Shown: one piece after another, positions 4,262 through 48,948 of the stretch
Layout of the letters: every line of letters begins with the position of its first letter
Position numbering within the stretch: the stretch's first letter is position 1
Assembly (NCBI GenBank): GCA_965197585.1
Contig: OZ240215.1
Location: 960,001-1,024,000, forward strand
Direction of reading: 5' to 3'
DNA length: 64,000 nucleotides
From: Dehalococcoidia bacterium
Lineage (GTDB): Bacteria > Chloroflexota > Dehalococcoidia > Plut-88900
The notes under the pieces: generated by a model
Databases searched by the model: none
What the model saw: the letters and a program-made list of their open reading frames with translations, nothing else
What the model was told of the DNA's origin: nothing
Made by a program: the position numbers and the translations under genes

Positions 4262-4285
4262 AGATTCCTCGCGGGGCCTCGGAAT
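4262..4285 (+). repeat. REP-like family A (AGATTCCTCGCGGAGCCTCGGAATGAC), interrupted by IS481
   Basis: Matches the intact copy at 38524-38557 up to GGAAT. Confidence 0.85.
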
Positions 4286-5341
4286 TGTGGATGTCAGGTA
4301 ATTCGTTGACAGAATTAGGTGGATTTAAGGGTCTCCAAAGGGGTCTTTCCGTCCATTGCCTGGTGGGGTCTCTGAGTATTGTAGTAGATCAGGTATTGCT
4401 GAAGCTCGTCCTTCAGTTCCGAGACCGATTCGAAGGTTGTCCCCTCCAGCAGGTCCTCGTTCAAGGTTCTCCAGAACCGCTCTATCTTCCCGTTGGTCTG
4501 GGGCCTATAGGGTCGGGTGTAGCGGTGCTTTATGCCCAGCTCATTGAGCATCCGTTCCATGGGGTGGCCCTCGGTGTTCCTTGGGGAGGCCATCTCGGGG
4601 CCGTTGTCGGTGAGGATGGCCTCGAATTGGATGCCGTACTCCACGTTAAGGAAATTGATGGACTTCAGAGTAGCAAACATAACGGAGAGACTCTTGATGT
4701 CTCCGACCACTTCGGCCCAGGCCAGACGGGTGTAGGCGTCGATGAGGCCCACCAGGTAGTAGCGGTGCTTGGTGCCCACGATGGTATCCCGGCTGAGGTA
4801 GTGGCTGTCCAGGTGGCCCAGCTCTCCTGCCCGGGTCTTGATGATCTTGCGCTTCGACTGCTGCATCGGCTTTGTGAGCCTATTGAAACCGTGGCGTCTG
4901 GTGATGGCGTAGATGGTGGAGGGCTTAGGGGTGTTGTGTTTAAGGATGGGTTTGAGTATGGCATAGATCTCGTAACGGTTGGTACCGTTAAGGCGCTCGT
5001 TGATGACCTTCTGCTCAATGTAGGGCAGGGTGCGGCGGGACTTCCACCCGGGACCCCGCTTACGGGGGAGGAAGGCGTTGTCGGAGGGGGAGAGGAGGAA
5101 CCGGTTGTAGTACTTGGCGAAGGTCTGACGGCTAGTGCCGTGGAAGGAGTAGAAGTCCTGGGCGAAGCGGAAACGGGGATGCTTCCCTGCCTTGACCAGT
5201 TGATACTCATGGATGAGGAACCGCCACTTCTGAATGTAGTTACGTTCAAGGGTGAGGTCCTTGCTATTGTCTCGCATTCTCGCCTCCAGATTGGTGTTGG
5301 CCTCTTATACCAATCTGTCAACGAATTACCTAACACTTACA
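4286..5341 (-). mobile_element. IS481-family insertion sequence, copy 1 (1056 bp)
   Basis: TGT...ACA ends, about 27-bp imperfect TIR containing AGGTAATTCGTTGACAG; near-identical to 47810-48865; no matching TSD on the right. Confidence 0.92.
4315..5277 (-). CDS. IS481-family DDE transposase (rve integrase core)
   Basis: 'GHLD', 'LTDNGPE', 'RPYRPQTNGKIERFWRTL', 'YYNTQRPH' motifs. Confidence 0.93.
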   Translation of the reverse strand: MRDNSKDLTLERNYIQKWRFLIHEYQLVKAGKHPRFRFAQDFYSFHGTSRQTFAKYYNRFLLSPSDNAFLPRKRGPGWKSRRTLPYIEQKVINERLNGTNRYEIYAILKPILKHNTPKPSTIYAITRRHGFNRLTKPMQQSKRKIIKTRAGELGHLDSHYLSRDTIVGTKHRYYLVGLIDAYTRLAWAEVVGDIKSLSVMFATLKSINFLNVEYGIQFEAILTDNGPEMASPRNTEGHPMERMLNELGIKHRYTRPYRPQTNGKIERFWRTLNEDLLEGTTFESVSELKDELQQYLIYYNTQRPHQAMDGKTPLETLKST

Positions 5342-5481
5342 CTCCCGCAATAGACGGATCTGCGACAGGGTGAGCGGCCCCACCCCTGGGGATGGATTCC
5401 GGCTCTCGGCGCATGCCAAAGGCGTATCTTCGACATCTTCGTCCGGCTCTCGGTAGCGGGGATGATCCGCCTAAGTCGGAC
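5342..5481 (+). repeat. Cluster of a family B half-repeat and a family D repeat with nested 22-bp inserts
   Basis: Inserts at 5345-5366 and 5413-5434, the latter inside a split unit 5400-5412/5435-5443; hairpin TCCGCCTAAGTCGGA at 5466-5480. Confidence 0.7.
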
Positions 5482-5561
5482 AGGCTCCCCTCATGGGGAT
5501 GGGGTGGGGGTGTGCTATCATGTCGAGCGAAAAATCGGGAGCAAACGAGAAGGAGAAACAG

Positions 5562-7256
5562 ATGACCACGGCTGCAAAATTCGACGTTAGGCATCGGAGC
5601 AGAATTGTCGCGGACGGGCCGGACCGGGCGGCGGCTCGGGCGATGCTAAGGGCGGTCGGCGTCGGGGACAAGGAGTTTGAGCAGCCGTTCATCGGGGTGG
5701 CGAACACGGCGTCGGATGTTACGCCATGCAACGTGCACCTGGACAAGCTGGCGGAGCGAGTCAAGGCGGGTGTGAAGTCGGCGGCGGGTACGCCCTTCGA
5801 GTTTGGGGTGCTGACCGTGAGCGACGGGATATCGATGGGTACGGAGGGGATGAAGGCGTCGCTGGTGAGCCGGGAGCTGATCGCCGACTCCATTGAGTTG
5901 GTCTCCCACGGCGAATACTTCGACGGCCTCGTGACGATTGCGGGCTGCGACAAGAATCTGCCGGGGGCGATGATGGCCGCGGCACGGCTGAACATTCCGA
6001 CAGTCTTCCTATACAGCGGTACGATAATGCCCGGCAGATACGCCGGAAGAGACATCAGTATCCAGGATGTTTTTGAGGCCATAGGCGCGCATAGCAAGGG
6101 CCGGATCAGCGACTCCGATTTGAAGGACATCGAGTGTGCGGCGTGCCCGGGAGCGGGGTCGTGCGGGGGGATGTTTACGGCCAACACCATGTCCTCGACC
6201 ATCGAGGCTATGGGTATGGCACTGCCGGGGGCGTCGTCGGAGCCGGCGGTGGAAGAAGGGATATTGCAGAAGTCGTACGAGGCAGGCCGGACTGTGATGA
6301 GGCTGTTGGAACAGGGGATAAGGCCTCGAGACATCCTGACTAAGGAAGCGTTCGAAAACGGGATTGCAGTCGCTGTATCGATGGGCGGCTCAACTAACGT
6401 CGTTCTCCACCTACTAGCCATAGCTTACGAAGCCGGGGTGGACCTCAGCATCGAGGACTTCCACAGGATCAGCGAGCGCACGCCGTATATCGCGGACATG
6501 AAGCCAGGAGGCCGGTACCTCATGGTCGATCTGCACCGGGAAGGCGGCGTCCCGACGGTCATGAAGCGGCTCCTGGACGCAGGACTGCTGCACGGGAGTG
6601 CGATGACGGTTACGGGCAAGACTGTCGAGGAGAACTTGGCGGATGTGGAGATTCCGACCTCCGGCAAGGTAGTCCATCCCGTGGCCGAGCCCCTGAGTCC
6701 TCACGGTTCCATGGTGATACTGAAGGGTAATCTCGCACCCGAGGGAGCGGTGGTGAAGTTGGCTCATCCGGAGGATCTGAGCAAGGTCCACCGGGGCCGG
6801 GCGAGGGTGTTCAACAGGGAGCAGGACGCCTTCCGAGCCGTGGACAACCAGGAAATTGTGGCAGGAGACGTAGTCGTGCTGCGCTACGAGGGGCCCAAGG
6901 GCGGGCCCGGAATGAGGGAGATGCTCCACGTGACCGCCGCCATTGTAGGGCAGGGGCTGGGGGAGGACGTGGCTTTGATAACCGACGGCCGGTTCTCGGG
7001 GGCGACGCAGGGGTTCATGGTTGGGCACGTGGCTCCGGAGGCGATGGTCGGTGGGCCGATTGCGGTGGTTAAGGAAGGCGACACGATTGTCCTTGACATC
7101 CCCAACGCCCAGCTCAACCTGGACATTTCACAAGAAGATTTTGACCGGAGGCTGGCGGCGTGGGTCCCGATTCCGCCGAACTACACAACGGGTGCGCTGG
7201 CGAAATACGCCAAGCTGGCGACTTCCGCGTCTCAGGGGGCGGTGACGATGGGGTAG
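5562..7256 (+). CDS. ilvD: Dihydroxy-acid dehydratase
   Basis: 'PCN', 'SDGISMG', 'GCDKNLPG', '[10 protein letters not shown]', 'GGSTN', 'GPGMREM', 'TDGRFSG'; AAGGAG RBS before ATG 5562. Confidence 0.96.
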
Positions 7257-7348
7257 ATTGAGTCCCCGCCGATAAGGTATTAGAATAAGCTGGGTTTGCT
7301 GCCCGCAGACCGAGCGATGAGACCCTAAAGCTTGGAGGCCTGCCTCGT

Positions 7349-7600
7349 ATGACCTACATAATCGCCGAGCCCTGCATCGGAGTCAAAGACCTGGCCTGCG
7401 TTGAGGTCTGCCCAGTCGACTGTATCCACCCCTCCGACGGTGAAGGGTACGATATGCTGTTCATCGACCCCGACGAGTGCATCGACTGCGCAGCGTGCGA
7501 ACCCGTGTGCCCGGTGACCGCCATCTTCGAAGAGTCCGAGGTGCCGGAGTACTGGGCCCAGTACTACGACATCAACATCAACTTCTTCAAAAGCGACTAG
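7349..7600 (+). CDS. fdxA: Dicluster (7Fe-type) ferredoxin
   Basis: '[18 protein letters not shown]' and '[12 protein letters not shown]'. Confidence 0.9.
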
Positions 7601-7616
7601 CCCGGCCTTACGCCGG

Positions 7617-8021
7617 TCAATCGCGCCCGCGTCCTTTTGTGAGCGCTTGCGCGGCGTTGGCGTCGGGCTTACCCCACGCAATGATCAGCTTGAGGGGCGA
7701 ATCGGAGTTGTTGCGCATGCCGTGGTCTATGCCCTCGGGCACCAGAACGGCCTCGCCAGCCTGCACTTCCAGGGTCTCATCCCCGAACCACATCTCGCCG
7801 CGGCCTTCGAGGAAGTAGTAGAGCTCTTCTAGGGAATTTTCGCCTTCGTGAGTGTGGGCACCTTCACTGACTCCCGGGGCCAGCTCCCATAGCTGAAACT
7901 TGACCGGCAGGCGGGAGATCTCGTCGAAGAAGCCGCGCATGTCGATGTTACCGTCGCCGTGGTGGACCGGCCGAGAGATGATGCCGGTCGAGTCTTTCTC
8001 TTTCCAATAATTGGGAGCCAT
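7617..8021 (-). CDS. Cupin domain protein
   Basis: 'HTH...EELYYFLEGRG' and 'VPEGIDHGMRN' cupin metal motifs. Confidence 0.88.
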   Translation of the reverse strand: MAPNYWKEKDSTGIISRPVHHGDGNIDMRGFFDEISRLPVKFQLWELAPGVSEGAHTHEGENSLEELYYFLEGRGEMWFGDETLEVQAGEAVLVPEGIDHGMRNNSDSPLKLIIAWGKPDANAAQALTKGRGRD

Positions 8022-8049
8022 GCTGCCCTCCTTGGATGGGTATCGGGGT

Positions 8050-9135
8050 TTAGGCTTGAATCAGCCACTCGTCGTACGGGTCTCCAGCGGATAGCATAGC
8101 AGTCATTTTGACGTCCATGCCGAACTGTAATTCGTGTGCCAAGAGCCGCCAGCCCTGGAGCATTGCGTCTTCCATCTCCGGGGGCCGAGGGTTTGAAGGA
8201 GGGAAGAGGCGGGGATTTCGCTTGTGCTGGCGGACCTTAATCAGGGTGTCGCTGACGGTTTCAATATCGACTTCTTCGTGAAGGGACTCGCGGTCCCGCT
8301 TGATGAAAAGGGCAAAGGCCTGAGGGGCGGAGTCCACATCTTCCAAGTTGTAGTCCCGCATTATCTTGCGGGCTAGCTGGACATGGGTGACCCGGCTGGC
8401 GTGCTCTACAATCGCTCGGGCCCCGCTAACTCCGTACATTTCCAGAAGGGCGATGATGTGACTGGTGACATATTCCACGGAGTAGTTCCGAAGGGCGCGG
8501 GCAGAGCGTTCCTCCGTCCAGTCTTCCACCGGAAGCTTCGGTCCATTTGCCGGATCGAAGGCGGGACCGCGCTCGGTGGGGCTGAACTGGAGCCGTTCAT
8601 CGGGTTCGAGGTCCCGGTCGAAGATCTTGAAGTATCCCTCGTAGCAGGAATCGCCCTGCTGGGAGGGCTGGGTGAGGACGAACCCGAGCCTCGGGTTGCC
8701 CAGGGAAACGCCATTGTGAGCGTGCCACGCCCAGAAAGTTGCGCGCCCTGTCTTGGGAGCGTAGGCGGCAATGCTGACTGCGGGGGAGAAGGGGCTGTCC
8801 GACATGGCGTAAGGAGGCGGGTAGCGGACCCAGACCTTCTCGGGGGTCTCCTCTATGTAATGGACGTCAAGGCCGCCCAGGATGTTGGAGAAATAGTGGT
8901 ATTTCCCGGCCTTCACGGCGTCGGAGGGTTCCTTATCCAGGCCAAGCTTTTGGAGGCCGGGGAGGAAATAGTTGAGCTGGTGACGTCTCAGCATCTTAAA
9001 CTTCAGGGTAGCGACGGCGTCCTGGCCATGAGCGCGGATTGTGGCCAGCTCCAGAGCGGAACATATGGTCATGTACGTATCGTTGGCGAGTTGGCACTTG
9101 CCCATGAGGGACTTGTTCCATTCGGGGACGTGCAT
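8050..9135 (-). CDS. Conserved hypothetical protein, paralog 1
   Basis: 361-aa ORF with RBS, highly similar over its full length to 9169-10254. Confidence 0.85.
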   Translation of the reverse strand: MHVPEWNKSLMGKCQLANDTYMTICSALELATIRAHGQDAVATLKFKMLRRHQLNYFLPGLQKLGLDKEPSDAVKAGKYHYFSNILGGLDVHYIEETPEKVWVRYPPPYAMSDSPFSPAVSIAAYAPKTGRATFWAWHAHNGVSLGNPRLGFVLTQPSQQGDSCYEGYFKIFDRDLEPDERLQFSPTERGPAFDPANGPKLPVEDWTEERSARALRNYSVEYVTSHIIALLEMYGVSGARAIVEHASRVTHVQLARKIMRDYNLEDVDSAPQAFALFIKRDRESLHEEVDIETVSDTLIKVRQHKRNPRLFPPSNPRPPEMEDAMLQGWRLLAHELQFGMDVKMTAMLSAGDPYDEWLIQA

Positions 9136-9168
9136 AGTTGACCTCTCTTCAGATTGGGAGTTGAGGGT

Positions 9169-10254
9169 CTAGGCGCGAATCAGCCATTCGTTGTACGGGT
9201 CTCCTGCGGCGAGCATGGACATCATCTTGACGTCGAGGCCGAACTGAAGCTCGTGGGCCATGAGCCGCCAGCCCTGGGGCATAGCGTCTTCGATTTCAGC
9301 GGGCCAGGGTATGGAGGGTGGGAATAGGCGGGGGTTTCGGGTCTTCTGGCGGACCTTTATCAAGGTGTCGCTGACGGTTTCAATCTCCACTTCTTCGTCA
9401 AGCGACTCCCGGTCCCGCTTGATGAAGAGGGCAAGGGCTTCGGCGCCGGAGTCGGCGTCATCCAAGTTCATGTCCCGCATGAGCTTCCGGGACAGCTGTA
9501 CATAGGTAACCCGGCTAGCGTGTTCGACGATGGCGCGGGCCCCGCTTACCCCGTACATTTCCAGAAGGGCAGTCACGTGGCTGGTAACGTATTCGACGGC
9601 GTAGTTACGAAGAGCGCGGGCGGCGCGGACCTCGGTCCAGTCTTCAACGGGGAGCATGGGGGCGGTGGTCGGGTCGAAGGCAGGGCCTCGCTCGCCGGGG
9701 CTGAACTGGAGACGCTCTTCGGGTTCAAGGTCACGGTCGAAAATCTTGAAATATCCCTCGTGGCAGGCGTCTCCCTGCTGGGCGACCTGGGTGAGAACGA
9801 ACCCGAGCCTGGGGTTGCCCAGAGATACGCCGTTGTGGGCGTGCCATGCCCAGAAGGTGTAGTGCCCGACCTTGGGCCCAAACGCGGCGATGCCGACGGT
9901 CGGGGAGAAAGGGCTGTCGGACATGGCGTAGGGCGGCGGGTATCGGACCCAGGCCTTCTCGGGGGTCTCCTCGATGTAGTGCACGTCCAAGCCGCCGAGG
10001 ATGTTGGAGAAGTAGTGGTACTTCCCGGACTTCACCGCGTCGGAAGGGTCTTTGTCGATGCCGAGCTTTCGGAGGCCGGGGAGGAAATGGTCGAGCTGGT
10101 GCCGGCGGAGCATTTTGAACATAAGGGTTGCGGCGGCGTCCTGGCCATGGGAGCGCAGGGTGGAGAGCTCCAGGGCGTTGCATATAGACAGGTAGGTGTC
10201 GTTGGCGATCTGGCACTTTTCGATGAGGGACTTGTTCCATTCGGGGACTTGCAT
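9169..10254 (-). CDS. Conserved hypothetical protein, paralog 2
   Basis: 361-aa tandem paralog; many differences are synonymous, which supports coding status. Confidence 0.85.
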   Translation of the reverse strand: MQVPEWNKSLIEKCQIANDTYLSICNALELSTLRSHGQDAAATLMFKMLRRHQLDHFLPGLRKLGIDKDPSDAVKSGKYHYFSNILGGLDVHYIEETPEKAWVRYPPPYAMSDSPFSPTVGIAAFGPKVGHYTFWAWHAHNGVSLGNPRLGFVLTQVAQQGDACHEGYFKIFDRDLEPEERLQFSPGERGPAFDPTTAPMLPVEDWTEVRAARALRNYAVEYVTSHVTALLEMYGVSGARAIVEHASRVTYVQLSRKLMRDMNLDDADSGAEALALFIKRDRESLDEEVEIETVSDTLIKVRQKTRNPRLFPPSIPWPAEIEDAMPQGWRLMAHELQFGLDVKMMSMLAAGDPYNEWLIRA

Positions 10255-10346
10255 GGGTCACCTGCTTTGGGGTGGGGTGTGGGGGGGATGTTACAACATT
10301 TTTTGGAGGGGTGGGGGGTATCGGTTTGGCTGTCCGGGGGTCTCCT

Positions 10347-10499
10347 CCCGTTTGACGCTTCGAGAGCCTCACGCCTGAGACGGATCTGCGACAGGATGAG
10401 CGGCCCCGCACCTGGATTCGGGTGAGGAGTGTGAGGGTATGGCTGTCGGGGACCGCCCCCGCTCGACCCTTCGAGTGCCTCAGGGTGAGCGGCCCCGCA
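10347..10499 (+). repeat. Two family B REP-like repeats; the first carries a 22-bp insert (10371-10392)
   Basis: CTTCGAGAGCCTC[ACGCCTGAGACGGATCTGCGAC]AGGATGAGCGG versus the empty CTTCGAGTGCCTCAGGGTGAGCGG about 100 bp downstream. Confidence 0.8.
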
Positions 10500-10541
10500 C
10501 CCGGATTCCGGATGGAGGAGGAATGGACGGAGAGGCGGGGA

Positions 10542-12938: not shown

Positions 12939-12953
12939 TGCTGGGCCCGAGCC

Positions 12954-13157: not shown

Positions 13158-13181
13158 TGTGGTGACTCCAATGGGTCCGGG

Positions 13182-13448: not shown

Positions 13449-13467
13449 GTGAGACCTCTTGTATCCC

Positions 13468-13563: not shown

Positions 13564-14668
<1,105 letters not shown>

Positions 14669-14700: not shown

Positions 14701-14722
14701 ATCCCTCGCGGAGCCTCGGAAT
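14699..14722 (+). repeat. Middle fragment of a family A REP lying between IS110 and IS481
   Basis: AGATCCCTCGCGGAGCCTCGGAAT; the REP continues as GGAATGACAC at 15779. Confidence 0.88.
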
Positions 14723-15778
14723 TGTAAGTGTTAGGTAATTCGTTGACAGATTGGTATTCAATGGGTAAACCAATCTGGGGGCGAAGATGCGAGACAACAG
14801 CAAGGACCTCACCCTTGAACGTAACTACATTCAGAAGTGGCGGTTCCTCATCCATGAGTATCAACTGGTCAAGGCAGGGAAGCATCCCCGTTTCCGCTTC
14901 GCCCAGGACTTCTACTCCTTCCACGGCACTAGCCGTCAGACCTTCGCCAAGTACTACAACCGGTTCCTCCTCTCCCCCTCCGACAACGCCTTCCTCCCCC
15001 GTAAGCGGGGCCCCAGGTGGAAGTCCCGCCGCACCCTGCCCTACATTGAGCAGAAGGTCATCAACGAGCGCCTTAACGGTACCAACCGTTACGAGGTCTA
15101 TGCCATACTCAAACCCATCCTTAAACACAACACCCCTAAGCCCTCCACCATCTACGCCATCACCAGACGCCACGGTTTCAATAGGCTCACAAAGCCGATG
15201 CAGCAATCGAAGCGCAAGATCATCAAGACCCGGGCAGGAGAGCTGGGCCACCTGGACAGCCACTACCTCAGCCGGGATACCATCGTGGGCATCAAGCACC
15301 GCTACTACCTGGTGGGCCTCATCGACGCCTACACCCGTCTGGCCTGGGCCGAAGTGGTCGGAGACATCAAGAGTCTCTCCGTTATGTTTGCTACTCTGAA
15401 GTCCATCAACTTCCTCAATGTGGAGTACGGCATCCAATTCGAGGCCATCCTCACCGACAACGGCCCCGAGATGGCCTCCCCAAGGAACACCGAGGGCCAC
15501 CCCATGGAACGGATGCTCAATGAGCTGGGCATAAAGCACCGCTACACCCGCCCTTATAGGCCCCAGACCAACGGGAAGATAGAGCGGTTCTGGAGAACCT
15601 TGAACGAGGACCTGCTGGAGGGGACAACCTTCGAATCGGTCTCGGAACTGAAGGACGAGCTTCAGCAGTACCTGATCTACTACAATACTCAACGACCCCA
15701 CCAGGCAATGGATAGAAAGACCCCTTTGCAAACCCTTAAATCTCTCTACTGCTGTCAACGAATTACCTGACTTCTACA
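14723..15778 (+). mobile_element. IS481-family insertion sequence, copy 2 (1056 bp, variant ends)
   Basis: TIRs TGTAAGTGTTAGGTAATTCGTTGACAG / TGTAGAAGTCAGGTAATTCGTTGACAG; 5-bp TSD GGAAT at 14718-14722 and 15779-15783. Confidence 0.94.
14787..15770 (+). CDS. IS481-family DDE transposase
   Basis: Near-identical to the copy 1 protein, with a 7-aa C-terminal extension. Confidence 0.93.
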   Translation: MRDNSKDLTLERNYIQKWRFLIHEYQLVKAGKHPRFRFAQDFYSFHGTSRQTFAKYYNRFLLSPSDNAFLPRKRGPRWKSRRTLPYIEQKVINERLNGTNRYEVYAILKPILKHNTPKPSTIYAITRRHGFNRLTKPMQQSKRKIIKTRAGELGHLDSHYLSRDTIVGIKHRYYLVGLIDAYTRLAWAEVVGDIKSLSVMFATLKSINFLNVEYGIQFEAILTDNGPEMASPRNTEGHPMERMLNELGIKHRYTRPYRPQTNGKIERFWRTLNEDLLEGTTFESVSELKDELQQYLIYYNTQRPHQAMDRKTPLQTLKSLYCCQRIT

Positions 15779-15825
15779 GGAATGACACGCAAAGTGGGGG
15801 AGGCAAAGGCGAACGCGGTTTGCGT

Positions 15826-16673: not shown

Positions 16674-16744
16674 CAGGTCGGCGGCATAAGGATATTTTTC
16701 GGGGAGCGAGGAGCCCGTAAGCAGGATGAGCCAGGAGGGATGCA

Positions 16745-17800
16745 ATGGCGAGGATGGACTTTGGGATCGGGCTGGGGGCAGAGCTGCGGTTTGATGAAAT
16801 CGCAGAGCATTCAAGAATCGCCGACGAGGCGGGATACAGCCACCTGACATTCGTCGACCAGAGCAACGTGTCGAGAGAATGCTTCGGTATGATGACCATC
16901 GCAGCGATGAACACTCGCCGAATCCACATAGGGCAGGGTGTGTGCGACCCGTTTATGTACCACCCGGCGGTCATCGCTAACTTCACGGCCAGCGTGCGGG
17001 AGCTTACCGGGGGAAGGGCGTTCATTGGTCTTGGGGCGGGGACGAGGCAGGCCGGCAAGGCGACTCGGGGGCCGGTTAGCCTGAAGATGCAACGAGAGAC
17101 GGTAAACTTTCTGAAGTCCTACACCTCAGGAGGAGATGCGGAGCTGTGGGGCCAGACGTGGCACTCCGAATGGATCAGGAACACGCCGTTCAACGGACAA
17201 TCGATACCCGTGATCATGGGTCCCCTCGGGCCACGAGCTTTGCAGCTTGCCGGCGAAGTTGCCGATGAAATCATGATGTTTGGAGCAGGGGAGCCGGAGT
17301 TAATCAAGTGGAACCTGGAGCAGATCGAGACGGGGGCCAACCGGGCGGGCCGGGACTTCTCGAAGATCAAGACATGGGCTCGTACAGAGGTTTACGTTAC
17401 AGGGTCCAAGGAGGAGGCGAGACACGAGGTAGCTTCTTATGCGGCATCTTGCGCGAGCGAGCTGTACAAAGTGATATTCAAACGCAACACACCCGAGGCC
17501 CAGGACTTGTACCAGAGGCTCGAGAAGAAGAGCCCCGGTCTGGTGGATGAATACAAAAAGATCCACGAGGGTTTCAACCCCTACGAGCACGAGTCCTTGC
17601 ATGCCGAACACAAATACCTGGCGACGCAGAGGGTGATCGACTCCATCAACCTGACGGGACGCGTGGAGGACATAGACGAGAGAGTTTACGACCTGCACGA
17701 GCTAGGGATCAGCGGAGTCTCATGCGTCCAATATGCAATCATCGACCAGAAGAACAATATGCGGGAGATTTCCAACAGCATCATGCCCCAGTTCAGATAG
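16745..17800 (+). CDS. LLM-class (luciferase-like) flavin/F420-dependent oxidoreductase
   Basis: 'TRRIHIG', 'HPAVIA', 'GGRAFIGLGAG', 'GPRALQLAGEVAD'. Confidence 0.9.
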   Translation: MARMDFGIGLGAELRFDEIAEHSRIADEAGYSHLTFVDQSNVSRECFGMMTIAAMNTRRIHIGQGVCDPFMYHPAVIANFTASVRELTGGRAFIGLGAGTRQAGKATRGPVSLKMQRETVNFLKSYTSGGDAELWGQTWHSEWIRNTPFNGQSIPVIMGPLGPRALQLAGEVADEIMMFGAGEPELIKWNLEQIETGANRAGRDFSKIKTWARTEVYVTGSKEEARHEVASYAASCASELYKVIFKRNTPEAQDLYQRLEKKSPGLVDEYKKIHEGFNPYEHESLHAEHKYLATQRVIDSINLTGRVEDIDERVYDLHELGISGVSCVQYAIIDQKNNMREISNSIMPQFR

Positions 17801-17935
17801 ACTCTCGCATGATTACAACCAGAATGGGCCTAATGCCGCTACGCTACGGCGCCTGGTAATGTCTGGGGACGCCGAGACAGGACGCAGAGCCCATTCACGT
17901 GGGGCCTACCAACAGGACGAAATAGGAGAAATGCA

Positions 17936-18991
17936 ATGGCGAGAATGGACTTCGGGATCGGGCTTGGGGCGGAGCTGCGGTTCGATGAGATCGCGGACCA
18001 TGCGAGGGTTGCCGACGAAGGTGGTTACACTCACCTGACGTTCGTCGATCAGAGCAACGTGTCGAGGGAATGCTTCGGCATGATGACCATCGCGGCGATG
18101 AACACGCGGCGGATCCACATCGGCCAGGGTGTGTGCGACCCGTTCATGTACCACCCGGCGGTCATCGCCAACTTCACTGCGAGCTTGCGGGAGCTTACCG
18201 GAGGCAGGGCGTTCATCGGTCTTGGGGCGGGGGCGAGGGAGGCGGGGAAGGCGACCCGGGGGCCGGTTAGCCTGAAGATGCAACGGGAGACCGTAAACTT
18301 CTTGAAGTCATACACCTCGGGAGGAGATGCCGAGTTGTGGGGCCAGACGTGGCACTCGGAGTGGATCAGGAACACGCCGTTCAACGGTCAGTCGATACCC
18401 GTGATCATGGGGCCTCTCGGGCCGAGAGCGATGCAGCTTGCCGGCGAGGTCGCAGACGAGATTCTTATGTTCGGGGCAGGGGAGCCGGAGATCATCAAGT
18501 GGAACCTGGAGCAGATTGAGACAGGGGCCAATCGGGCGGGTCGTGACCCTTCCAAGATCAAGACCTGGGCTCGGACAGAGGTGTACATCACCGGTTCCAA
18601 GGAGGAGGCGAAACATGAGGTCGCCTCCTATGCGTCGTCGTGTGCGAATGGACTCTACCGCTCGATTTTCAAACGCAACACACCCGAGGCCCAGGAACTG
18701 TACCGGCGGCTGGAGAAGAAGAGTCCGGGCCTGGTGGACGAATTCAAGAACATACACGAGAACTTCAACCCCTACGAGCACGAATCGCTGCATGCCAAGC
18801 ACAAGCTCCTAGCGTCACAGAGAGTGATCGACGCCATCAACTTGTCGGGGCCCGTGGAGGACATTGACGAGAAGATATACGACCTTCAAGAACTGGGCCT
18901 GAATGGGGTCTCCTGCGTCCAGTACGCGATCATCGACCAGAAGAGCAACATGCGGGAGATTTCCAACAGCATCATGCCCCAGTTCCGGTAG
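17936..18991 (+). CDS. LLM-class oxidoreductase, tandem paralog
   Basis: Same length (351 aa) and motifs as 16745-17800. Confidence 0.9.
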   Translation: MARMDFGIGLGAELRFDEIADHARVADEGGYTHLTFVDQSNVSRECFGMMTIAAMNTRRIHIGQGVCDPFMYHPAVIANFTASLRELTGGRAFIGLGAGAREAGKATRGPVSLKMQRETVNFLKSYTSGGDAELWGQTWHSEWIRNTPFNGQSIPVIMGPLGPRAMQLAGEVADEILMFGAGEPEIIKWNLEQIETGANRAGRDPSKIKTWARTEVYITGSKEEAKHEVASYASSCANGLYRSIFKRNTPEAQELYRRLEKKSPGLVDEFKNIHENFNPYEHESLHAKHKLLASQRVIDAINLSGPVEDIDEKIYDLQELGLNGVSCVQYAIIDQKSNMREISNSIMPQFR

Positions 18992-20464: not shown

Positions 20465-20493
20465 TAGTTCCCTCGCGGAGCCTCGGGATGACA
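20465..20493 (+). repeat. REP-like family A variant, no IS inserted
   Basis: TAGTTCCCTCGCGGAGCCTCGGGATGACA. Confidence 0.75.
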
Positions 20494-22476: not shown

Positions 22477-22507
22477 CTTAGATTTCTCGCGGAGCCTCGA
22501 AATGACA
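22477..22507 (+). repeat. REP-like family A variant, no IS inserted
   Basis: CTTAGATTTCTCGCGGAGCCTCGAAATGACA, with compensatory changes in the stem. Confidence 0.8.
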
Positions 22508-38523: not shown

Positions 38524-38557
38524 AGTCCTAGATTCCTCGCGGAGCCTCGGAATGACA
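38524..38557 (+). repeat. Intact family A REP (empty target for both IS types)
   Basis: AGTCCTAGATTCCTCGCGGAGCCTCGGAATGACA. Confidence 0.88.
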
Positions 38558-42523: not shown

Positions 42524-42583
42524 TGTCAGGGTTCCTCCGATAGAGGTGTCGATTCGATGTCGACGGTATGCCGAGTTAGCCGG

Positions 42584-43444: not shown

Positions 43445-43522
43445 GGCATTGCCTCCGGTTGAAGTGTGATAGTGGAATTGAGGATATTCTAACATCGCCC
43501 GCCTTTGTAAAGGGGCAGGCAT

Positions 43523-43550
43523 GGGGCGGCGGTTCTCGAACCGCCCCTAC
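43523..43550 (-). repeat. GTAG-type REP-like palindrome
   Basis: GTAGGGGCGGTTCGAGAACCGCC on the minus strand. Confidence 0.55.
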
Positions 43551-44158
43551 GGGAGGGAGCCTCCAAGGAAGGACTTGAGCATGATGTGCGCCATCGGTAG
43601 GAGCATGATCGGGGCAAGCAGGTAGGTCTTCCTTGTCTTGAAGCCGAAGGCAATTTCGTAGAAGGCACGTGGTAGGAAGGACACGAAGACATAGGCGAAA
43701 AGCCCGATGAAAAGGGTGTGCGGCACTGACCAGAGGCCGTGATAGGTCTCAGTTAGAAAAATGCTGAAGGCCGCCGTGGCCCCTGCCGAAATGGTCGCTA
43801 TGAAGGCACTAGCGATTGTAATTCCGACGCCCGACTCCCTGGGTATCTCGATGGAGGCAGAGCGGTAGAAGAAAGCCATGAGAGCGGTGGCGAGGGGCAG
43901 GAGGATGAGGTCGCCGACCATAAAGGCCGGGCTGCGGAGGAAGACGCTGGTTATGACTTCGAGGCGCCAGGCGATGAGGAGAAGCGAACCCCACCCGAGA
44001 ACCAGAATCATCAGCCCGACAATGAGCGGGTGAAGGGACATCAACCGGGCGAGAGGATCACCTGCTAGGAGGGCTCTCGGACCGGCTCTTTTCTTTTCTT
44101 CAGACTCGGGGTGGGGCGGTCGCTTGGGGAGGTCGAACCTCGAGCAGCGTGTTGTCAT
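43547..44158 (-). CDS. Hypothetical membrane protein (start uncertain)
   Basis: About five hydrophobic segments. Confidence 0.7.
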   Translation of the reverse strand: MTTRCSRFDLPKRPPHPESEEKKRAGPRALLAGDPLARLMSLHPLIVGLMILVLGWGSLLLIAWRLEVITSVFLRSPAFMVGDLILLPLATALMAFFYRSASIEIPRESGVGITIASAFIATISAGATAAFSIFLTETYHGLWSVPHTLFIGLFAYVFVSFLPRAFYEIAFGFKTRKTYLLAPIMLLPMAHIMLKSFLGGSLP

Positions 44159-44168
44159 CGGGGGTGCG

Positions 44169-45464
44169 TCAGACCACGGCTTTGATCATATCCATGTCTC
44201 CATCCTTGAAGCGGCTGTGTCGGAGAGCATGGATGTCAACGGAAGATTCCCCGTCGGCTATTAGCTCGGCGGTGACCTTGCCTGCGATCGGCCCGATGCC
44301 TATGCCCCGACCGCTGAACCCTGTGCAGAAGTAGAACCCCTTTGGAGAATCAGCTTCTCCTATAACGGAAAGGGCGTCGGGAGTAGCGTCGATGCGGCCC
44401 GACCAGTAGTGGTTGATCTTCAGGTCCTTCAGATCGGGGAACATGGACTTGAAGGTGACCAGGGCCTTGTCGATAACCTTCCTGTTGGGCTCGGGCTCGA
44501 CGCCCACGGTGTGAGCGAAGGGGTGTCGGCGGGATGGGGAGCCGGGCAAGCTTCTCAGGATGTCCTTTATCAGCGCACTCCCGACATGAAGACGGAACAT
44601 CTCTCGGTTCCTGCGGAAGTTTGGCATGAAAAGACGGATGTGTTTGAAGCTGTCCAGGTCAACGTCGTAGTCCGTGCCACCGGACCCCGGTGCGATGTAG
44701 ACCTCGCCCGTTGGCCTCTGCCGGAAGGCGATCCGGGGCCCGATGACCGCCATATCGGTAACGTGGTCGGTAGGGTTAGTCTGCCCGACGCTCGCCCGCA
44801 CCATCCGGTAGGGAAGGGTTTGGCCGACCATGCGGGCCACTTTGTGAGACCATGCCCCGGCCGCGCAGACTACGTTCTTGGTGACGATTCTGTCCCTTTC
44901 GGTGACTACGGCGGAGACTTGGCCATCGGTCACCTCGATGCCCTCGACGGCCTCCATAGTCCTGAAAAGGGCGCCGTGCTCCCGTGCCCCGATGGCGATG
45001 GCGTTCGTTGCCTTGTTGGGCTGGGCGTGGCCGTCGCTCGGGGTATACATGGCCCCAAGCCACTCACCCCGCATGGCCGGAAGAAGCTCTTTCACGTCCT
45101 CGTTGGTCAGGAACTTGGTCTCGATGCCGAACTGCTCCCCGACTTTGAGCCACGCTCGGATTCTTCCGAGTATCTCCTCGTCTCCCGCCAGGGTTAGTGA
45201 GCCACCCTGGTTCCATTCCACGTCTGCATCAAGCTCGCGCTCCATCTCCTGCCATACTATGGCCCCGGCAATCATCAGGGGCAGCTCGCGGGCGGTACGG
45301 GCCTGCTGGCGTACGAAACCCCAGGCTCGGCTGGACTGCTCATCCCCGACCTCGCCTTTATCGACTACTACTACGTTGAGGCCCTTCTTGGAGAGGTAGT
45401 AAGCGGTGGCGCAACCGGCTATCCCGGCCCCGATTACGACTACGTCGGCGGTGCGAGTATTCAT
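44169..45464 (-). CDS. FAD-dependent oxidoreductase (D-amino acid oxidase family)
   Basis: 'IGAGIAG', 'EQSSRAWGFVRQQ', 'TGFSG'. Confidence 0.9.
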   Translation of the reverse strand: MNTRTADVVVIGAGIAGCATAYYLSKKGLNVVVVDKGEVGDEQSSRAWGFVRQQARTARELPLMIAGAIVWQEMERELDADVEWNQGGSLTLAGDEEILGRIRAWLKVGEQFGIETKFLTNEDVKELLPAMRGEWLGAMYTPSDGHAQPNKATNAIAIGAREHGALFRTMEAVEGIEVTDGQVSAVVTERDRIVTKNVVCAAGAWSHKVARMVGQTLPYRMVRASVGQTNPTDHVTDMAVIGPRIAFRQRPTGEVYIAPGSGGTDYDVDLDSFKHIRLFMPNFRRNREMFRLHVGSALIKDILRSLPGSPSRRHPFAHTVGVEPEPNRKVIDKALVTFKSMFPDLKDLKINHYWSGRIDATPDALSVIGEADSPKGFYFCTGFSGRGIGIGPIAGKVTAELIADGESSVDIHALRHSRFKDGDMDMIKAVV

Positions 45465-45474
45465 GCACGATCAC

Positions 45475-45915
45475 CTAGCCTTGGTTTTCTGGCGGGTAGA
45501 CTCGCTTGGCACACAGTTTATCGTTAGCCATTTCAAAGATTTCCACGTCATCCGGAAATAGGTGGCAGTAGCGTCTTACGTAGTGCTCTGCCAAAGTTTC
45601 ACCGGCTCGGTTTTTGTCAGTCTTCCGTAAGAAGAGCATCTTATTGTACTTATCGGATGTGGCAGAAAAGTAAAGCATTGCCTCGTTAGCCGTTGAGAAC
45701 TTGGCGCTAGGTGACCCTCCGCTTTTTAACCAACTGTACGATTTGCATTCAACCAGCAGGGCGTCGCTACCTAAATCGAACTTGTGCAACGCATTGTGCC
45801 GAGTATTTACACTGATCGTGACCTTATGCTCTGCCTCTAGGCAGTGCCCCTTGCATTCCTTCAAGTAGCGTTGAACACGACAAGTGAATTGTCTTCCCTT
45901 TTCGAAGTTGTTCAT
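45475..45915 (-). CDS. Hypothetical protein with a PD-(D/E)XK nuclease-like motif, low GC
   Basis: 'HKFDL...LVECK' and N-terminal 'G..F' helix; AT-rich codon usage. Confidence 0.6.
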   Translation of the reverse strand: MNNFEKGRQFTCRVQRYLKECKGHCLEAEHKVTISVNTRHNALHKFDLGSDALLVECKSYSWLKSGGSPSAKFSTANEAMLYFSATSDKYNKMLFLRKTDKNRAGETLAEHYVRRYCHLFPDDVEIFEMANDKLCAKRVYPPENQG

Positions 45916-46014
45916 CTATCTCCCCACTCTTTCAATTTATCTCGCACACAATACTCGCGCACAACAAGGGAATAGTGCCTCTATACGTCACGTATAGAAC
46001 AGCTAGTGAACTGG

Positions 46015-46043
46015 TTGACAATTCTATCATGTTCTAATAGATT
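46015..46043 (+). promoter_or_regulatory. Putative sigma70 promoter TTGACA-N17-TAGATT
   Basis: Consensus -35 and spacing, in an AT-rich intergenic region. Confidence 0.5.
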
Positions 46044-46130
46044 ATCCGATAATGCTGGTAGAATACATACGACAAAACCTCTTCACCTACCTACAGCACT
46101 CTCATTTAATAGCATGTTATTTATCATATT

Positions 46131-46292
46131 ATGCCAGTTATCATTTGTTTGGGCCTAATCTTGCTAGGTTTACTGGCCTTCACACAAGGCTGGTACTTCC
46201 GTGGTAACGCCCTGGTCGCTGCCGCCTTCATCCTTATGGGCCTCTCAGCTATATCCCGCGTCTTAGTCGCCGTGTGGCCCGCAGCTGCATAA
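46131..46292 (+). CDS. Putative 53-aa two-TM small membrane protein (not in the ORF track)
   Basis: MPVIICLGLILLGLLAFTQGWYFRGNALVAAAFILMGLSAISRVLVAVWPAAA. Confidence 0.5.
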   Translation: MPVIICLGLILLGLLAFTQGWYFRGNALVAAAFILMGLSAISRVLVAVWPAAA

Positions 46293-46313
46293 AAACGTCC
46301 CTTTTCAACCAAT

Positions 46314-46592
46314 ATGCGTATGAACAATCTTTGGGAACAAGCCTACCTTCCGGGCACTGGGGCTGAGCTTTATCAATGCGATGGCAAACTATGGCACTCT
46401 ATTGAATACCACGATCCGGACTACATGACCTGGATAAACGGACACCCAGGCACACCACAGCCTGAGGATGGGTTTTACTGCGACTCGTGTGTTTGGTATG
46501 CTGAACGAGAGGCCAAGAAGGGTAACAGACCCGAAGTTGCTCTCGGCCCGACCCTGGATGAAGAGCTAAAGCGACGACTCTTGTCTTCCTAA
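46314..46592 (+). CDS. Hypothetical protein (Cys/His-containing)
   Basis: 92-aa ORF with 'CDG..WH' and 'YCDSC'. Confidence 0.55.
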   Translation: MRMNNLWEQAYLPGTGAELYQCDGKLWHSIEYHDPDYMTWINGHPGTPQPEDGFYCDSCVWYAEREAKKGNRPEVALGPTLDEELKRRLLSS

Positions 46593-46628
46593 ATCCCGTG
46601 GTGTAAAGGTATCTATCCCTAGACAAAA

Positions 46629-47507
46629 CTACTCCCGGGGCTTTGACCTGGGGCCGAAGGGCTCGGGGATGAAGGGGCCGTCGCGGAGCTTGAGGAACTC
46701 ACGGAGACCGCCGCGGCGCTGGGCATCGTCCAGAGGCTGGTAGAAGTCTCGGCTGCGGGAGAGGTGAGCCAGGGCCTTCATCTCGTTGTTGAGGAGGAGG
46801 GCGTTGCGAAGACCCATCATGTTGAGGCCCTGGGTAGCGACCTGAAGGTTAATCTTCACGGTCTCGGGGGCGTTCATGGCGATGCGCTCGACTATGGAGA
46901 AGCAGCGGTCTATAAGCTGGTTGTGGGGCACGACTTCGTTGATCAGACCGATGCGGAGAGCTTCATGGGCGTCGATGTGGTCGCCGGTAAGGGCGTAGCG
47001 CAGGGCGTGCTTGTACCCGGCGTTGAGGACCCAGAAAAAATTGGTGTCGTCACCCATCCGGACCTCGGGCTGACCGAAGACGGCCTCGTCTGAGGCAAAG
47101 GTCATGTGACAGGCGAGGGCGTACCAGGAGGCTCCAGCGAGACACCAGCCGTTCACTGCGGCAATCACGGGCGTTCCCATGTCCCAAATCTGCAGGAGGT
47201 TCGCCTGCTCACCCTTGTCATGGTTCCGCTGAAACTCAATCTGCTCGGCGATGTTTGCGCCTTCGGGCAGTCCCGAGGGCCATTCCATTGGGCGTCCCGC
47301 TCCGATGTCGTATCCTGACGAAAAGGCCCGGCCCGAGCCGGTAATGACGACGGCGCGGACCTCGGGGTCAGCGTCTGCGGCGTAGAGGGCGTTGCTTAGC
47401 TCAGACGCTACCTCTTGCGAGATGGCGTTCAGGGTCTCGGGGCGGTTGAGGGTGATGAGGACACCCTTACGCTGCTTCTCGTAGAGGATAGTGTTGTATT
47501 CGGTCAT
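46629..47507 (-). CDS. Enoyl-CoA hydratase/isomerase family protein
   Basis: 'AFSSGYD', 'VNGWCLAG', 'FGQPEVR'. Confidence 0.9.
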   Translation of the reverse strand: MTEYNTILYEKQRKGVLITLNRPETLNAISQEVASELSNALYAADADPEVRAVVITGSGRAFSSGYDIGAGRPMEWPSGLPEGANIAEQIEFQRNHDKGEQANLLQIWDMGTPVIAAVNGWCLAGASWYALACHMTFASDEAVFGQPEVRMGDDTNFFWVLNAGYKHALRYALTGDHIDAHEALRIGLINEVVPHNQLIDRCFSIVERIAMNAPETVKINLQVATQGLNMMGLRNALLLNNEMKALAHLSRSRDFYQPLDDAQRRGGLREFLKLRDGPFIPEPFGPRSKPRE

Positions 47508-47602
47508 GAGGTGCTCCTTCTTTTGAACGGCTGATGAGGCAACACTATCGTGTCGTATTTGTGATGGTTGTGCAACACTTTATTTCCCGCCCCCCTGCCC
47601 CT

Positions 47603-47809
47603 CGTCGTTTCTGCGCAGGCAGGAACCCACCCTTTTCTCCCCCGTCATTCCGGCCGCCGAGGCGTGAATCCATCCTTGGGGAGGGGCCGCTCATCCTGAG
47701 CTTGCTGTAAGTCCGCTGAGGCGGATCGAAGGGTCGAGCGGGGGGAGGCCCAGTTTTGCCAATACATCGCCCTCACCCCCCGCCTCCACCCCAGCCCCCC
47801 TGTCATTCC
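47603..47809 (-). repeat. Cluster of REP-like repeats (CGTC-type, family D, family B with a 21-bp insert at 47704-47724, tail of family A)
   Basis: CGTCATTCCGGCCGCCGAGGCGTGAATCCATCC at 47643-47675; family B at 47683-47745; TGTCATTCC at 47801-47809. Confidence 0.72.
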
Positions 47810-48865
47810 TGTAAGTGTTAGGTAATTCGTTGACAGATTGGTATAAGAGGCCAACACCAATCTGGAGGCGAGAATGCGAGACAATAGCAAGGACCTCACC
47901 CTTGAACGGAACTACATTCAGAAGTGGCGGTTCCTCATCCATGAGTATCAACTGGTCAAGGCAGGGAAGCATCCCCGTTTCCGCTTCGCCCAGGACTTCT
48001 ACTCCTTCCACGGCACTAGCCGTCAGACCTTCGCCAAGTACTACAACCGGTTCCTCCTTTCCCCCTCCGACAACGCCTTCCTCCCCCGTAAGCGGGGTCC
48101 CGGGTGGAAGTCCCGCCGCACCCTGCCCTACATTGAGCAGAAGGTCATCAACGAGCGCCTTAACGGTACCAACCGTTACGAGATCTATGCCATACTCAAA
48201 CCCATCCTTAAACACAACACCCCTAAGCCCTCCACCATCTACGCCATCACCAGACGCCACGGTTTCAATAGGCTCACAAAGCCGATGCAGCAGTCGAAGC
48301 GCAAGATCATCAAGACCCGGGCAGGAGAGCTGGGCCACCTGGACAGCCACCACCTCAGCCGGGATACCATCGTGGGCACCAAGCACCGCTACTACCTGGT
48401 GGGCCTCATCGACGCCTACACCCGTCTGGCCTGGGCCGAAGTGGTCGGAGACATCAAGAGTCTCTCCGTTATGTTTGCTACTCTGAAGTCCATCAATTTC
48501 CTTAACGTGGAGTACGGCATCCAATTCGAGGCCATCCTCACCGACAACGGCCCCGAGATGGCCTCCCCAAGGAACACCGAGGGCCACCCCATGGAACGGA
48601 TGCTCAATGAGCTGGGCATAAAGCACCGCTACACCCGACCCTATAGGCCCCAGACCAACGGGAAGATAGAGCGGTTCTGGAGAACCTTGAACGAGGACCT
48701 GCTGGAGGGGACAACCTTCGAATCGGTCTCGGAACTGAAGGACGAGCTTCAGCAATACCTGATCTACTACAATACTCAGAGACCCCACCAGGCAATGGAC
48801 GGAAAGACCCCTTTGGAGACCCTTAAATCCACCTAATTCTGTCAACGAATTACCTGACATCCACA
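47810..48865 (+). mobile_element. IS481-family insertion sequence, copy 3 (1056 bp)
   Basis: Same TIRs as copy 1; 5-bp TSD ATTCC at 47805-47809 and 48866-48870. Confidence 0.94.
47874..48836 (+). CDS. IS481-family DDE transposase
   Basis: 320 aa, nearly identical to copy 1. Confidence 0.93.
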   Translation: MRDNSKDLTLERNYIQKWRFLIHEYQLVKAGKHPRFRFAQDFYSFHGTSRQTFAKYYNRFLLSPSDNAFLPRKRGPGWKSRRTLPYIEQKVINERLNGTNRYEIYAILKPILKHNTPKPSTIYAITRRHGFNRLTKPMQQSKRKIIKTRAGELGHLDSHHLSRDTIVGTKHRYYLVGLIDAYTRLAWAEVVGDIKSLSVMFATLKSINFLNVEYGIQFEAILTDNGPEMASPRNTEGHPMERMLNELGIKHRYTRPYRPQTNGKIERFWRTLNEDLLEGTTFESVSELKDELQQYLIYYNTQRPHQAMDGKTPLETLKST

Positions 48866-48948
48866 ATTCCGAGGCTCCGCGAGGAATCCGGGGGGCAGCG
48901 TCCTGTCCCCTCTCCCTTTGATGGGAGAGGGCTAGGGTGAGGGTGATC
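48866..48948 (-). repeat. Family A REP remainder followed by an intact family C palindrome
   Basis: ATTCCGAGGCTCCGCGAGGAATC; CCCTCTCCC-TTTGAT-GGGAGAGGG CTAGGGTGAGGGTG. Confidence 0.82.

Follow-up and report, generated by a model that had tools for sequence, protein, structure and literature searches.

A stretch of 64,000 nucleotides from a Dehalococcoidia bacterium (assembly GCA_965197585.1, contig OZ240215.1, positions 960,001 to 1,024,000), hereafter called the window, carries three copies of a 1056-bp insertion sequence (IS), each of which adjoins the same base of a repetitive extragenic palindromic (REP) sequence. The other copies in the source genome, a single contig of 3,429,519 bp with 59.3% GC, and related elements from other genomes and metagenomes were analysed together with these three. 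The flanks identify the target as a junction in CGTC-type REPs, where the (C/T)GTC tag meets a stem that starts with A-T. The element is probably an active or recently active IS of a distinct clade of the IS481 family, whose transpososome would capture a short motif at this junction.

The captured motif would consist of the last five stem bases (here GGAAT) and the unpaired tag GAC(A/G), which on the other strand reads as (C/T)GTC followed by ATTCC. A staggered cut spanning precisely the five stem bases would place the IS between stem and tag, in either orientation and with a 5-bp duplication. It would be the transposase itself that reads the double-stranded motif, and not a hairpin or a host protein that is recognised, with the reading probably done by the conserved N-terminal DNA-binding region. 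As REPs are intergenic and present in about 100 or more copies per genome, they would offer the IS a neutral multi-copy landing pad. Since conservation of the tag and of the A-T at the stem base extends to the CGTC REPs of many phyla, the same clade could use equivalent sites elsewhere, such as GCAAT^GAC, GGGAT^GAC, AGAAT^GAC and others (^ marks the junction) in Alphaproteobacteria, Coxiellaceae and other hosts. Copies without matching duplications could be explained as later rearrangements, namely a deletion beside copy 1 and recombination between copies elsewhere.

Insertion sites in the source genome

Copy 1 of the window is located at positions 4286-5341 on the minus strand (transposase open reading frame, ORF, at about 4318-5277), copy 2 at 14723-15778 on the plus strand (ORF at about 14787-15743) and copy 3 at 47810-48865 on the plus strand (ORF 47874-48836, 320 amino acids). 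All are 1056 bp long; copy 3 was used as the reference, to which copies 1 and 2 are 99.7% and 96.4% identical, respectively. All three border the REP 19-mer CCTCGCGG(A/G)GCCTCGGAAT, for which six matches with at most two mismatches were present in the window against 0.02 expected from 100 shuffles. The hairpin adjoining copy 1, a member of the dominant family REP-A (4264-4285, plus strand), has its GGAAT end at 4281-4285; the other side of this copy reads CTCCC, so that no duplication is present. Copy 2 adjoins a REP-A with an imperfect left arm (14701-14722, plus strand) that ends in the first GGAAT duplication copy (14718-14722), and on the far side of the IS (15779-15786, plus strand) stand the second GGAAT (15779-15783) and then the GAC tag (15784-15786). 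In the case of copy 3, the split REP lies on the minus strand, with its tag side at 47802-47809 (GTC at 47802-47804 and an ATTCC duplication copy at 47805-47809) and its REP-A hairpin at 48866-48887, of which ATTCC at 48866-48870 is the second duplication copy. Relative to the REP, copies 1 and 3 are inserted in the opposite and copy 2 in the same orientation. Three further REP-A sequences on the plus strand are unoccupied: a perfect target at 38532-38556 (19-mer 38535-38553, GGAAT 38549-38553, GAC 38554-38556) and two variants, at 20468-20492 (19-mer 20471-20489) and 22482-22506 (19-mer 22485-22503), which end in GGGAT and GAAAT, respectively, each followed by GAC. An earlier note, made from the letters of the window, had described the shared REP base, the GGAAT/ATTCC duplication with GAC beyond it for copies 2 and 3, the two orientations and the GGGAT, GAAAT and GGAAT ends of the unoccupied REPs, and the coordinates agree with it on all of these.

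A BLAST search revealed 21 full-length copies in the whole genome. When compared to copy 3, 16 showed at least 99.2% identity, two 96.4% and three about 89%, and the transposase reading frame was intact in 19. Two of the three copies of the 89% subfamily (genome positions 2483388 and 3165181) contain an in-frame TAA and match the transposase from residue 67 only; these are decaying older copies, still at GGAAT^GAC sites. GGAAT/ATTCC adjoins the IS in all 21 copies, a perfect 5-bp GGAAT duplication was found for 19, and GAC/GTC is present beyond the duplication in 20. The two exceptions to the duplication are copy 1 and the copy at 1679032, which has one extra base at the junction. Fourteen copies are inserted in the opposite and seven in the same orientation relative to the REP. 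The targets span three stem sequences, designated REP-A, REP-B and REP-C, which have the frame ATTCC...GGAAT^GAC in common, and the stems of the targets other than REP-A consist of the 8-bp ATTCCGGC in two cases and of ATTCCTGC in one. A perfect ATTCC...GGAAT hairpin, searched for as a regular expression, borders 16 of the 21 copies, while by eye 19 could be placed inside recognisable members of the REP families. The copies at 1155045 and 2483388 have no left arm and lie in sequence that is not a REP, which nevertheless retains GGGAAT^GAC.

The flanks of the 21 copies, taken at 600 bp, have only short repeats in common, and no pair of copies is alike over the full flanks on both sides. At genome positions 1222982, 2784835 and 3333464 the flanks are alike over 47-188 bp, which lie inside copies of a larger composite repeat. 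REP-A is often nested in this composite repeat, as at window positions 4150-4263 and 48888-48950 and at the three genome positions just named; the repeat also holds a second inverted-repeat unit (...CCTGTCCCCTCTCCC...GGGAGAGGG...), and about 110-190 bp of it are common to some of the IS sites.

Orthologous sites in genomes of the same genus were also compared. The site of copy 2 is empty in two of them (G005 and G008), where a single GGAAT is directly followed by GAC. In a third (G003) the site of copy 1 is empty and intact, and the REP runs on from GGAAT straight into GACAG. The 181 bp that follow the REP in this genome (locus L173, contig C7, about 1103487-1103667) start at the GAC tag, include a further short repeat and are absent beside copy 1 (window position 5342 onward). 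This comparison indicates that copy 1 lacks a duplication because of a 181-bp deletion adjacent to the IS, which followed insertion at the usual base. In a fourth genome (G002, locus L159, contig C6), the orthologue of window positions 47700-47809, with a flank that is 91% identical, holds an IS at the REP junction of copy 3 in the opposite orientation, which suggests either an independent strike on one REP or an inversion in place. Flanks with only short repeats in common, together with empty orthologous sites, point to insertion rather than to duplication or misassembly. The earlier note had asked for a survey of the flanks of all genome copies and homologues, and had named a majority of copies at non-REP sites, or flanks copied along with the IS or misassembled, as what would speak against it. 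All 21 copies proved to border GGAAT, most of them in REP members as given above, the pooled homologues described below largely follow the same rule, and the flanks and empty sites carry no sign of copying.

Relatives in other genomes and metagenomes

A scan of one genome per species yielded 77 loci, and a metagenome scan with an alignment of 12 sequences yielded 80, of which 44 showed at least 43% amino acid identity. The pooled set at this identity comprised 119 elements (the 21 own copies, 61 of the 77 genome loci and 37 of the 44 metagenome loci), from which three incomplete ones were removed to leave 116. The hosts are Dehalococcoidia, Coxiellaceae, Nitrospinota and Alphaproteobacteria, in addition to metagenomes. 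The genome loci left out were 14 of less than 3100 nt, with the IS at the contig end (L013, L018, L051, L058, L061, L066, L068 and L071-L077), and two partial matches (L025 and L036); the seven metagenome loci left out either run off their contigs (L078, L112, L115, L116 and L137) or yielded no ends (L118 and L122). Two loci, L065 (nine stop codons) and L064, were kept for the analysis of flanks and omitted from the protein alignment. The ends of each relative were placed by its inverted repeats, after which the flanks were read. An element was called canonical if it fitted xxxAT^GAC, with a 5-bp duplication at no more than one mismatch and a GAC tag on one side.

Ninety-five of the 116 elements were canonical. 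By a count that does not depend on this definition, about 107 of the 116 have GAC/GTC where expected on one flank or both, a slip of 1 bp being allowed; chance would give about 3%. Among the 94 unique canonical sites, G stands at -5 in 89, A at -3 in 84 and at -2 in 92, T at -1 in 90, and A or G at +3 in 91. Orientation is balanced over the canonical elements (about 51 same against 44 opposite). The duplicated pentamer tracks the REP of the host: it is GGAAT in most Dehalococcoidia, where AGAAT, GGAAG and once ATGAT also occur, GCAAT in Bradyrhizobium, in an alphaproteobacterial metagenome-assembled genome (MAG) and in numerous contigs from soil, and, in a Coxiellaceae MAG, either GGGAT or AGGAT.

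The elements that were not canonical comprise six with a stem on both sides of the IS, six with a tag on both sides, four with a tag on one flank and five others. One of those scored as having two tags (L103) was so by coincidence and really has two stems, and one of those with a tag on one flank (L094) is ambiguous. The arrangements with two stems or two tags may be recombination products of oppositely inserted copies, or double strikes on paired REPs. The five others are copy 1, the copy at 1679032, L107 with a 6-bp duplication after CGTC, L106 between two different REP stems, and L114, the sole element of the 116 without any trace of the motif.

A quick maximum-likelihood tree of 69 transposases was constructed with IQ-TREE, six loci with in-frame stops being left out; its deep forks are weak (61). 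All 41 rows with tag sites fell into one clade, with a support of 100 in the Shimodaira-Hasegawa-like approximate likelihood-ratio test (SH-aLRT). The same clade includes the exceptional L114, the incomplete element L119, of which only one flank could be read and shows a REP stem, and L120, which has a long branch and an uncertain placement. Relatives of 32-38% identity (metagenome loci L121-L139 and L143) formed a separate clade (SH-aLRT 100) with its own type of inverted repeat. Their flanks read like GGGGACGGT on one side of the IS and ACCGTCCCC on the other, which is the centre of a palindrome, with a 5-bp duplication in several cases; from these flanks the clade is identified as another palindrome-targeting subclade of IS481. 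Palindromes of this type often precede runs of T, in the manner of a terminator. Relatives of 30-33% identity made up a third clade, likewise with SH-aLRT 100, in which the duplications are of the CTAG type and 6 bp long, as at the classical IS481 target. In this quick tree the tag-site clade and the CTAG-targeting clade are separate branches of one alignable family, and three separate clades with three targets indicate that the choice of target shifts between subclades of one family. As far as the flanks can tell, the tag/stem-junction rule holds for the whole of its clade, in at least four phyla.

The target repeats

On the tag strand, the REPs of this genome read (C/T)GTC, then the hairpin arms ATTCC...GGAAT, then a short tail. 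The sequence GGAATGAC occurs at 239 sites against 84 expected from base composition, and the following base is G in 103 of them, giving CGTC, and A in 76, giving TGTC. Unoccupied hairpins followed by GAC number 84. On the side of the hairpin without a tag the commonest triplets are CCA (62), CTA (33) and CTG (28). All the variants listed here run ATTCC...GGAAT, so that the stem starts with a complementary A-T; the arms in other hosts are ATTGC...GCAAT and ATCCC...GGGAT. REP-B and REP-C have 8-bp stems with loops of 4-6 nt, and the dominant REP-A has five perfect pairs around a 12-nt interior.

CGTC REPs were described by Di Nocera et al. (2013; PMC3733652). Their definition calls for CGTC (or TGTC/CCTC) as an unpaired tag on one end, a complementary A-T that opens the stem, a stem of 8-9 bp, a loop of 4-5 nt, a short unpaired tail that is mostly CCA, and a high copy number. 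They are known from five phyla, among which Chloroflexi was not named, and their tag and A-T stem base show conservation between phyla without a known reason. It was stated that they "apparently lack a dedicated transposase", their links to transposase genes being "only a few fortuitous associations". The repeats studied here agree with these REPs in the (C/T)GTC tag, the A-T start of the stem, the CCA/CTA/CTG tail and about 100-200 copies per genome, and differ from them as published in the Chloroflexota host and in the REP-A stem, which has only 5 perfect bp around 12 nt.

The hairpin-plus-tag pattern was matched 84-205 times in four genomes of the same genus (G004-G007) and 86-134 times in three genomes of other genera (G011, G016 and G019); the reversed pattern, used as control, gave 0-1 matches. 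None of these seven genomes contains a transposase match at E<=1e-60. REPs that are plentiful in related genomes without such a match exist independently of the IS. No Y1/RAYT transposase gene was found in the host genome, the completeness of which is 91.9%. In two Dehalococcoidia genomes of other genera (G018 and G019) the tagged REPs form head-to-head pairs with about 18 nt between them, which matches the dimer organisation described for CGTC REPs, and single hairpins tagged on both sides are also present there.

The element and its transposase

Members of the IS481 family are about 1 kb long and carry one long ORF without the programmed frameshift of IS3, inverted repeats of the type TGT...ACA and a short target duplication. 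The present IS shows these traits: a single ORF of 320 amino acids within 1056 bp, imperfect inverted repeats of about 27 bp that start with TGT and finish with ACA, and the 5-bp duplication. The transposase matched the Pfam domains rve_3 (6.8e-23), rve (5.8e-10) and rve_2 (1.2e-7). Its best NCBIfam model is NF033577 for IS481 (3.8e-54, residues 37-316), at 184 bits and thus under the curated cut-off of 224; the models of the sister families IS3 and IS21 gave 82 and 51 bits. The assignment to an IS481-type DDE transposase in the earlier note is borne out by the rve domains and by this best family model. The nearest plasmid-borne relatives are about 31% identical and labelled 'IS481 family transposase'. 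In a large protein collection 3306 of 4131 candidates matched the transposase at E<=1e-20, and the best 120 clusters (71-98% identity) bear generic names only, e.g. 'integrase core domain-containing protein [Chloroflexi bacterium]'.

An alignment of 12 clade members, 55-84% identical to the transposase of the window, showed that residues 1-60 are the best-conserved stretch and that D157, D224 and E266 are invariant; these three residues are the putative DDE triad. The first 36-46 residues are specific to the clade, as residues 1-36 lie outside the NCBIfam IS481 model and the segment could not be aligned in relatives of 30-38% identity. An AlphaFold model built from the 12-sequence alignment is confident for residues 6-145 and shows a helix (9-29), a helix-turn-helix (HTH, 39-62), a basic linker (70-82) and a three-helix HTH unit (85-128). 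In a fold search that covered residues 79-139 approximately, the HTH at 85-128 resembled the DNA-binding HTH of Mos1, Tc3, SETMAR, ISCth4, MuA and TnsB with middling Z scores of 5-7. The earlier note had suggested that an unusual N-terminal region might confer the specificity; according to the model, the N-terminus of the transposase is an ordinary bipartite HTH DNA-binding region.

Alternative explanations

The earlier note had called the transposase strictly REP-specific. Insertion aimed at one base of the REP is supported, the strictness is not, as sites outside REPs that carry the motif are also in use. Two of the 21 own copies, those at 1155045 and 2483388, lie in such DNA, and relatives outside REPs include L001, L009, L043 (ATGAT^GACG) and L064. 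A perfect closing stem is missing at 32 of the 94 canonical sites, which include degenerate REPs, half-REPs with the right arm and tag only (L027, L028, L032 and L050) and ordinary DNA (L001, L043, L064 and the two own copies). Folding of REP-A, with references from the window only, gave energies between -1.4 and -2.4 kcal/mol (z 0.4-0.7), which 120-156 of 200 shuffles equalled or bettered. With non-REP motif sites in use, a weak fold of the main target and, as given below, no significant excess of hairpins among intergenic sites, strict REP-specificity is unsupported. A short motif at the tag/stem junction, combined with survival of intergenic insertions, fits the data at least as well as recognition of the REP or of its structure, and is favoured here.

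Several points weigh against this explanation. Perfect closing stems of at least 4 bp are far commoner at occupied sites (62 of the 94 canonical ones) than in shuffled controls (6.8%). Perfect hairpins are also over-used among the GGAATGAC sites of the own genome, with 16 of 21 occupied against 84 of 219 unoccupied (odds ratio 5.1, p=0.001), and 84 perfect REP targets stay unoccupied. The sites are seen after selection; genic insertions may be purged, and the true preference may be broader or narrower than it appears. The presence of GAC at +1 to +3 in all 94 canonical sites is circular, being set by the definition. On the side of the protein, the IS481 score lies below its cut-off, and AlphaFold, working from a shallow alignment, modelled the catalytic domain poorly (pLDDT, the predicted local distance difference test, below 50; mean 57).

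The excess of closing stems and hairpins would be expected if a structure were targeted, i.e. if the transposase recognised the REP when extruded as a hairpin or cruciform, or a single-stranded hairpin formed at the replication fork, and cut at its base, the letters being merely those of the REP; that REPs with quite different stems are hit in one genome also agrees with this. This explanation is nevertheless considered unlikely. REP-A, the main target, folds no better than its shuffles, and about a third of the sites, including half-REPs and non-REP DNA, have no stem. The structurally equivalent base at the opposite side of the hairpin (ATTCC after CTA, CTG or CCA) was never occupied among the copies examined. 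GC skew puts the origin at about 2.65 Mb and the terminus at about 1.06 Mb, and the strand bias relative to replication is alike for occupied (14:7) and unoccupied REPs (61:23). Among GGAATGAC sites called intergenic, nearly all of which are REP-derived themselves, the ratio of hairpins to other sites was 16:5 for occupied and 55:34 for unoccupied ones and not significantly different (p=0.31); these calls come from a crude greedy longest-ORF caller that scored many IS flanks as genic through spurious antisense frames, so this result is indicative only. A split into coding and intergenic sequence by stop-to-stop frames of at least 110 codons was unusable, as such frames cover 94% of the genome. 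A protein of the host that binds the CGTC tag and the stem base could instead recruit the transposase, as was proposed for ISAba32-type IS1202 elements at XerCD sites. The conservation of tag and stem base across phyla without a known reason (PMC3733652) would suit such tethering, as would the precedent of the IS1202 subgroup, which inserts 5 bp from xrs and for which the authors argue for recognition beyond sequence (bioRxiv 10.1101/2022.12.17.520857). A partner conserved in the hosts of all four phyla would then be required for the identical position, no candidate factor was identified in the present analysis, and non-REP sites with the short motif alone are used; tethering has accordingly only a small chance of being correct.

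The remaining two explanations are both very improbable. If there were no real specificity, the IS would have been copied with its flanks by segmental duplication or misassembly, or would have inserted at random with survivors in REPs only. Purifying selection against genic insertions must exist, and the 47-188 bp in common at three genome sites could be taken as a trace of copying. Yet no pair of copies is alike over both full flanks, empty orthologous sites are present, the same rule is followed in unrelated assemblies and metagenome contigs, and survival alone cannot account for insertion at one exact base, with a 5-bp duplication, in 95 of 116 elements. By the flanks, the empty sites and the canonical elements, copying or random insertion is refuted for practical purposes. 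The IS might also make or move the REPs, which would be its footprints or miniature derivatives, or its transposase might be the missing mobilising enzyme of CGTC REPs; the host genome without a Y1/RAYT gene would agree with this. The REPs are several-fold more numerous than the IS copies, are unlike its inverted repeats by eye, and abound in the seven related genomes without a transposase match. A similarity between inverted repeats and target, judged by eye only and inconsistent across the clade, is not claimed.

A further possibility, of low probability, is that the tag and the A-T stem base, whose conservation extends from Chloroflexota to Proteobacteria, form a protein-recognition site, which the N-terminal 60-130 residues of the transposase read directly or at which they dock on a REP-binding factor. 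If so, the IS would serve as a natural probe for the agents behind the creation, upkeep or use of CGTC REPs, and the transposase or a domesticated relative could even join in the spread of REPs.

Comparison with known systems

The canonical target of IS481 is NCTAGN, with a 6-bp duplication. The present IS resembles canonical IS481 in its single-ORF DDE transposase, its TGT...ACA ends, its sequence-specific insertion and its family by the best hidden Markov model, and differs from it in the target xxxAT^GAC and the 5-bp duplication.

Targeting of REPs is documented for the families IS3, IS110, IS4, IS256 and IS5 (Tobes and Pareja 2006, PMC1525189), with IS1397, ISKpn1 and ISPsy8 (IS3), IS621, ISPa11, ISPpu9 and ISPpu10 (IS110) and ISRm22 (IS4) as examples in the same source. 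Like the present IS, the elements of IS3, IS110 and IS4 are associated with REPs at 100% or nearly so and use them as a safe multi-copy target, but their transposases belong to other families. IS110 has a different chemistry, its target being chosen by a bridge RNA (PMC11208160). The earlier note had given IS3 (IS1397) and IS110 as the known cases, which is documented, and had missed a precedent in the IS481 family itself: in Pseudomonas fluorescens SBW25, an IS481-family element has been reported at the same position of REPs (mBio 2024, PMC11708052). Both elements are of the IS481-family DDE type and have some copies that lost the duplication through rearrangement. The element of SBW25 has about 1.3 kb, 49-bp inverted repeats and a 4-bp duplication, against 1056 bp, about 27 bp and 5 bp here; it is known from one genome with five insertions in Pseudomonas REP/REPIN sequences, whereas the present IS is found in CGTC-type REPs throughout a clade and across phyla.

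The ISAba32 subgroup of IS1202, with 5-6-bp duplications, is fixed at 5 bp from XerCD (xrs/dif) sites (bioRxiv 10.1101/2022.12.17.520857). As with the present IS, the use of a short, partly palindromic conserved site is confined to a single subclade of a DDE family, in this case a distant relative of IS481/IS3, and the copies of the subgroup without duplication were put down to recombination between copies. The subgroup targets a recombinase-binding site in a fixed orientation, with the left inverted repeat facing that site, and a host protein bound there is suspected, in contrast to a REP and both orientations here.

REP-targeting ISs are thus already in print, the IS481 family included, and the present element is not a new kind of system; new are the distinct IS481 clade and its insertion, with five duplicated bp, between tag and stem of CGTC-type REPs, a rule conserved in at least four phyla. 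In the literature search, which did not extend to ISfinder or to the supplements of papers, no publication turned up that connects IS481-type elements with CGTC REPs or with Dehalococcoidia, and the term 'IS481' occurs 0 times in PMC1525189, PMC3733652 and PMC12306157.

CGTC REPs are widespread, and one transposase clade hits one exact junction in them. This defines a problem of protein-DNA recognition, with a motif of 8-9 bp and a DNA-binding region of 130 residues, that can be tested at the bench. The results also extend CGTC-type REPs to Dehalococcoidia, explain how 21 copies of an IS can build up in a 3.4-Mb genome, no more than two of them outside REP sequence, and give a well-sampled case of target-specificity switching within one IS family, between the REP junction, the centre of GGGGACGGT-type palindromes and NCTAGN. 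Compact sequence-specific DDE elements are useful starting points for the question of how target choice is encoded.

Further features of the window

An antisense open frame of 422 amino acids (window 47691-48959, minus strand) spans the whole of copy 3 and both its flanks. It almost certainly arises spuriously from the high GC, and it confuses simple ORF-based gene calling near the IS copies. Two pairs of direct repeats were observed at window positions 8046-9464 and 16707-18197, each of about 300 nt with 81-84% identity and with spacings of 1119 and 1191 bp; these are probably tandem paralogous genes.

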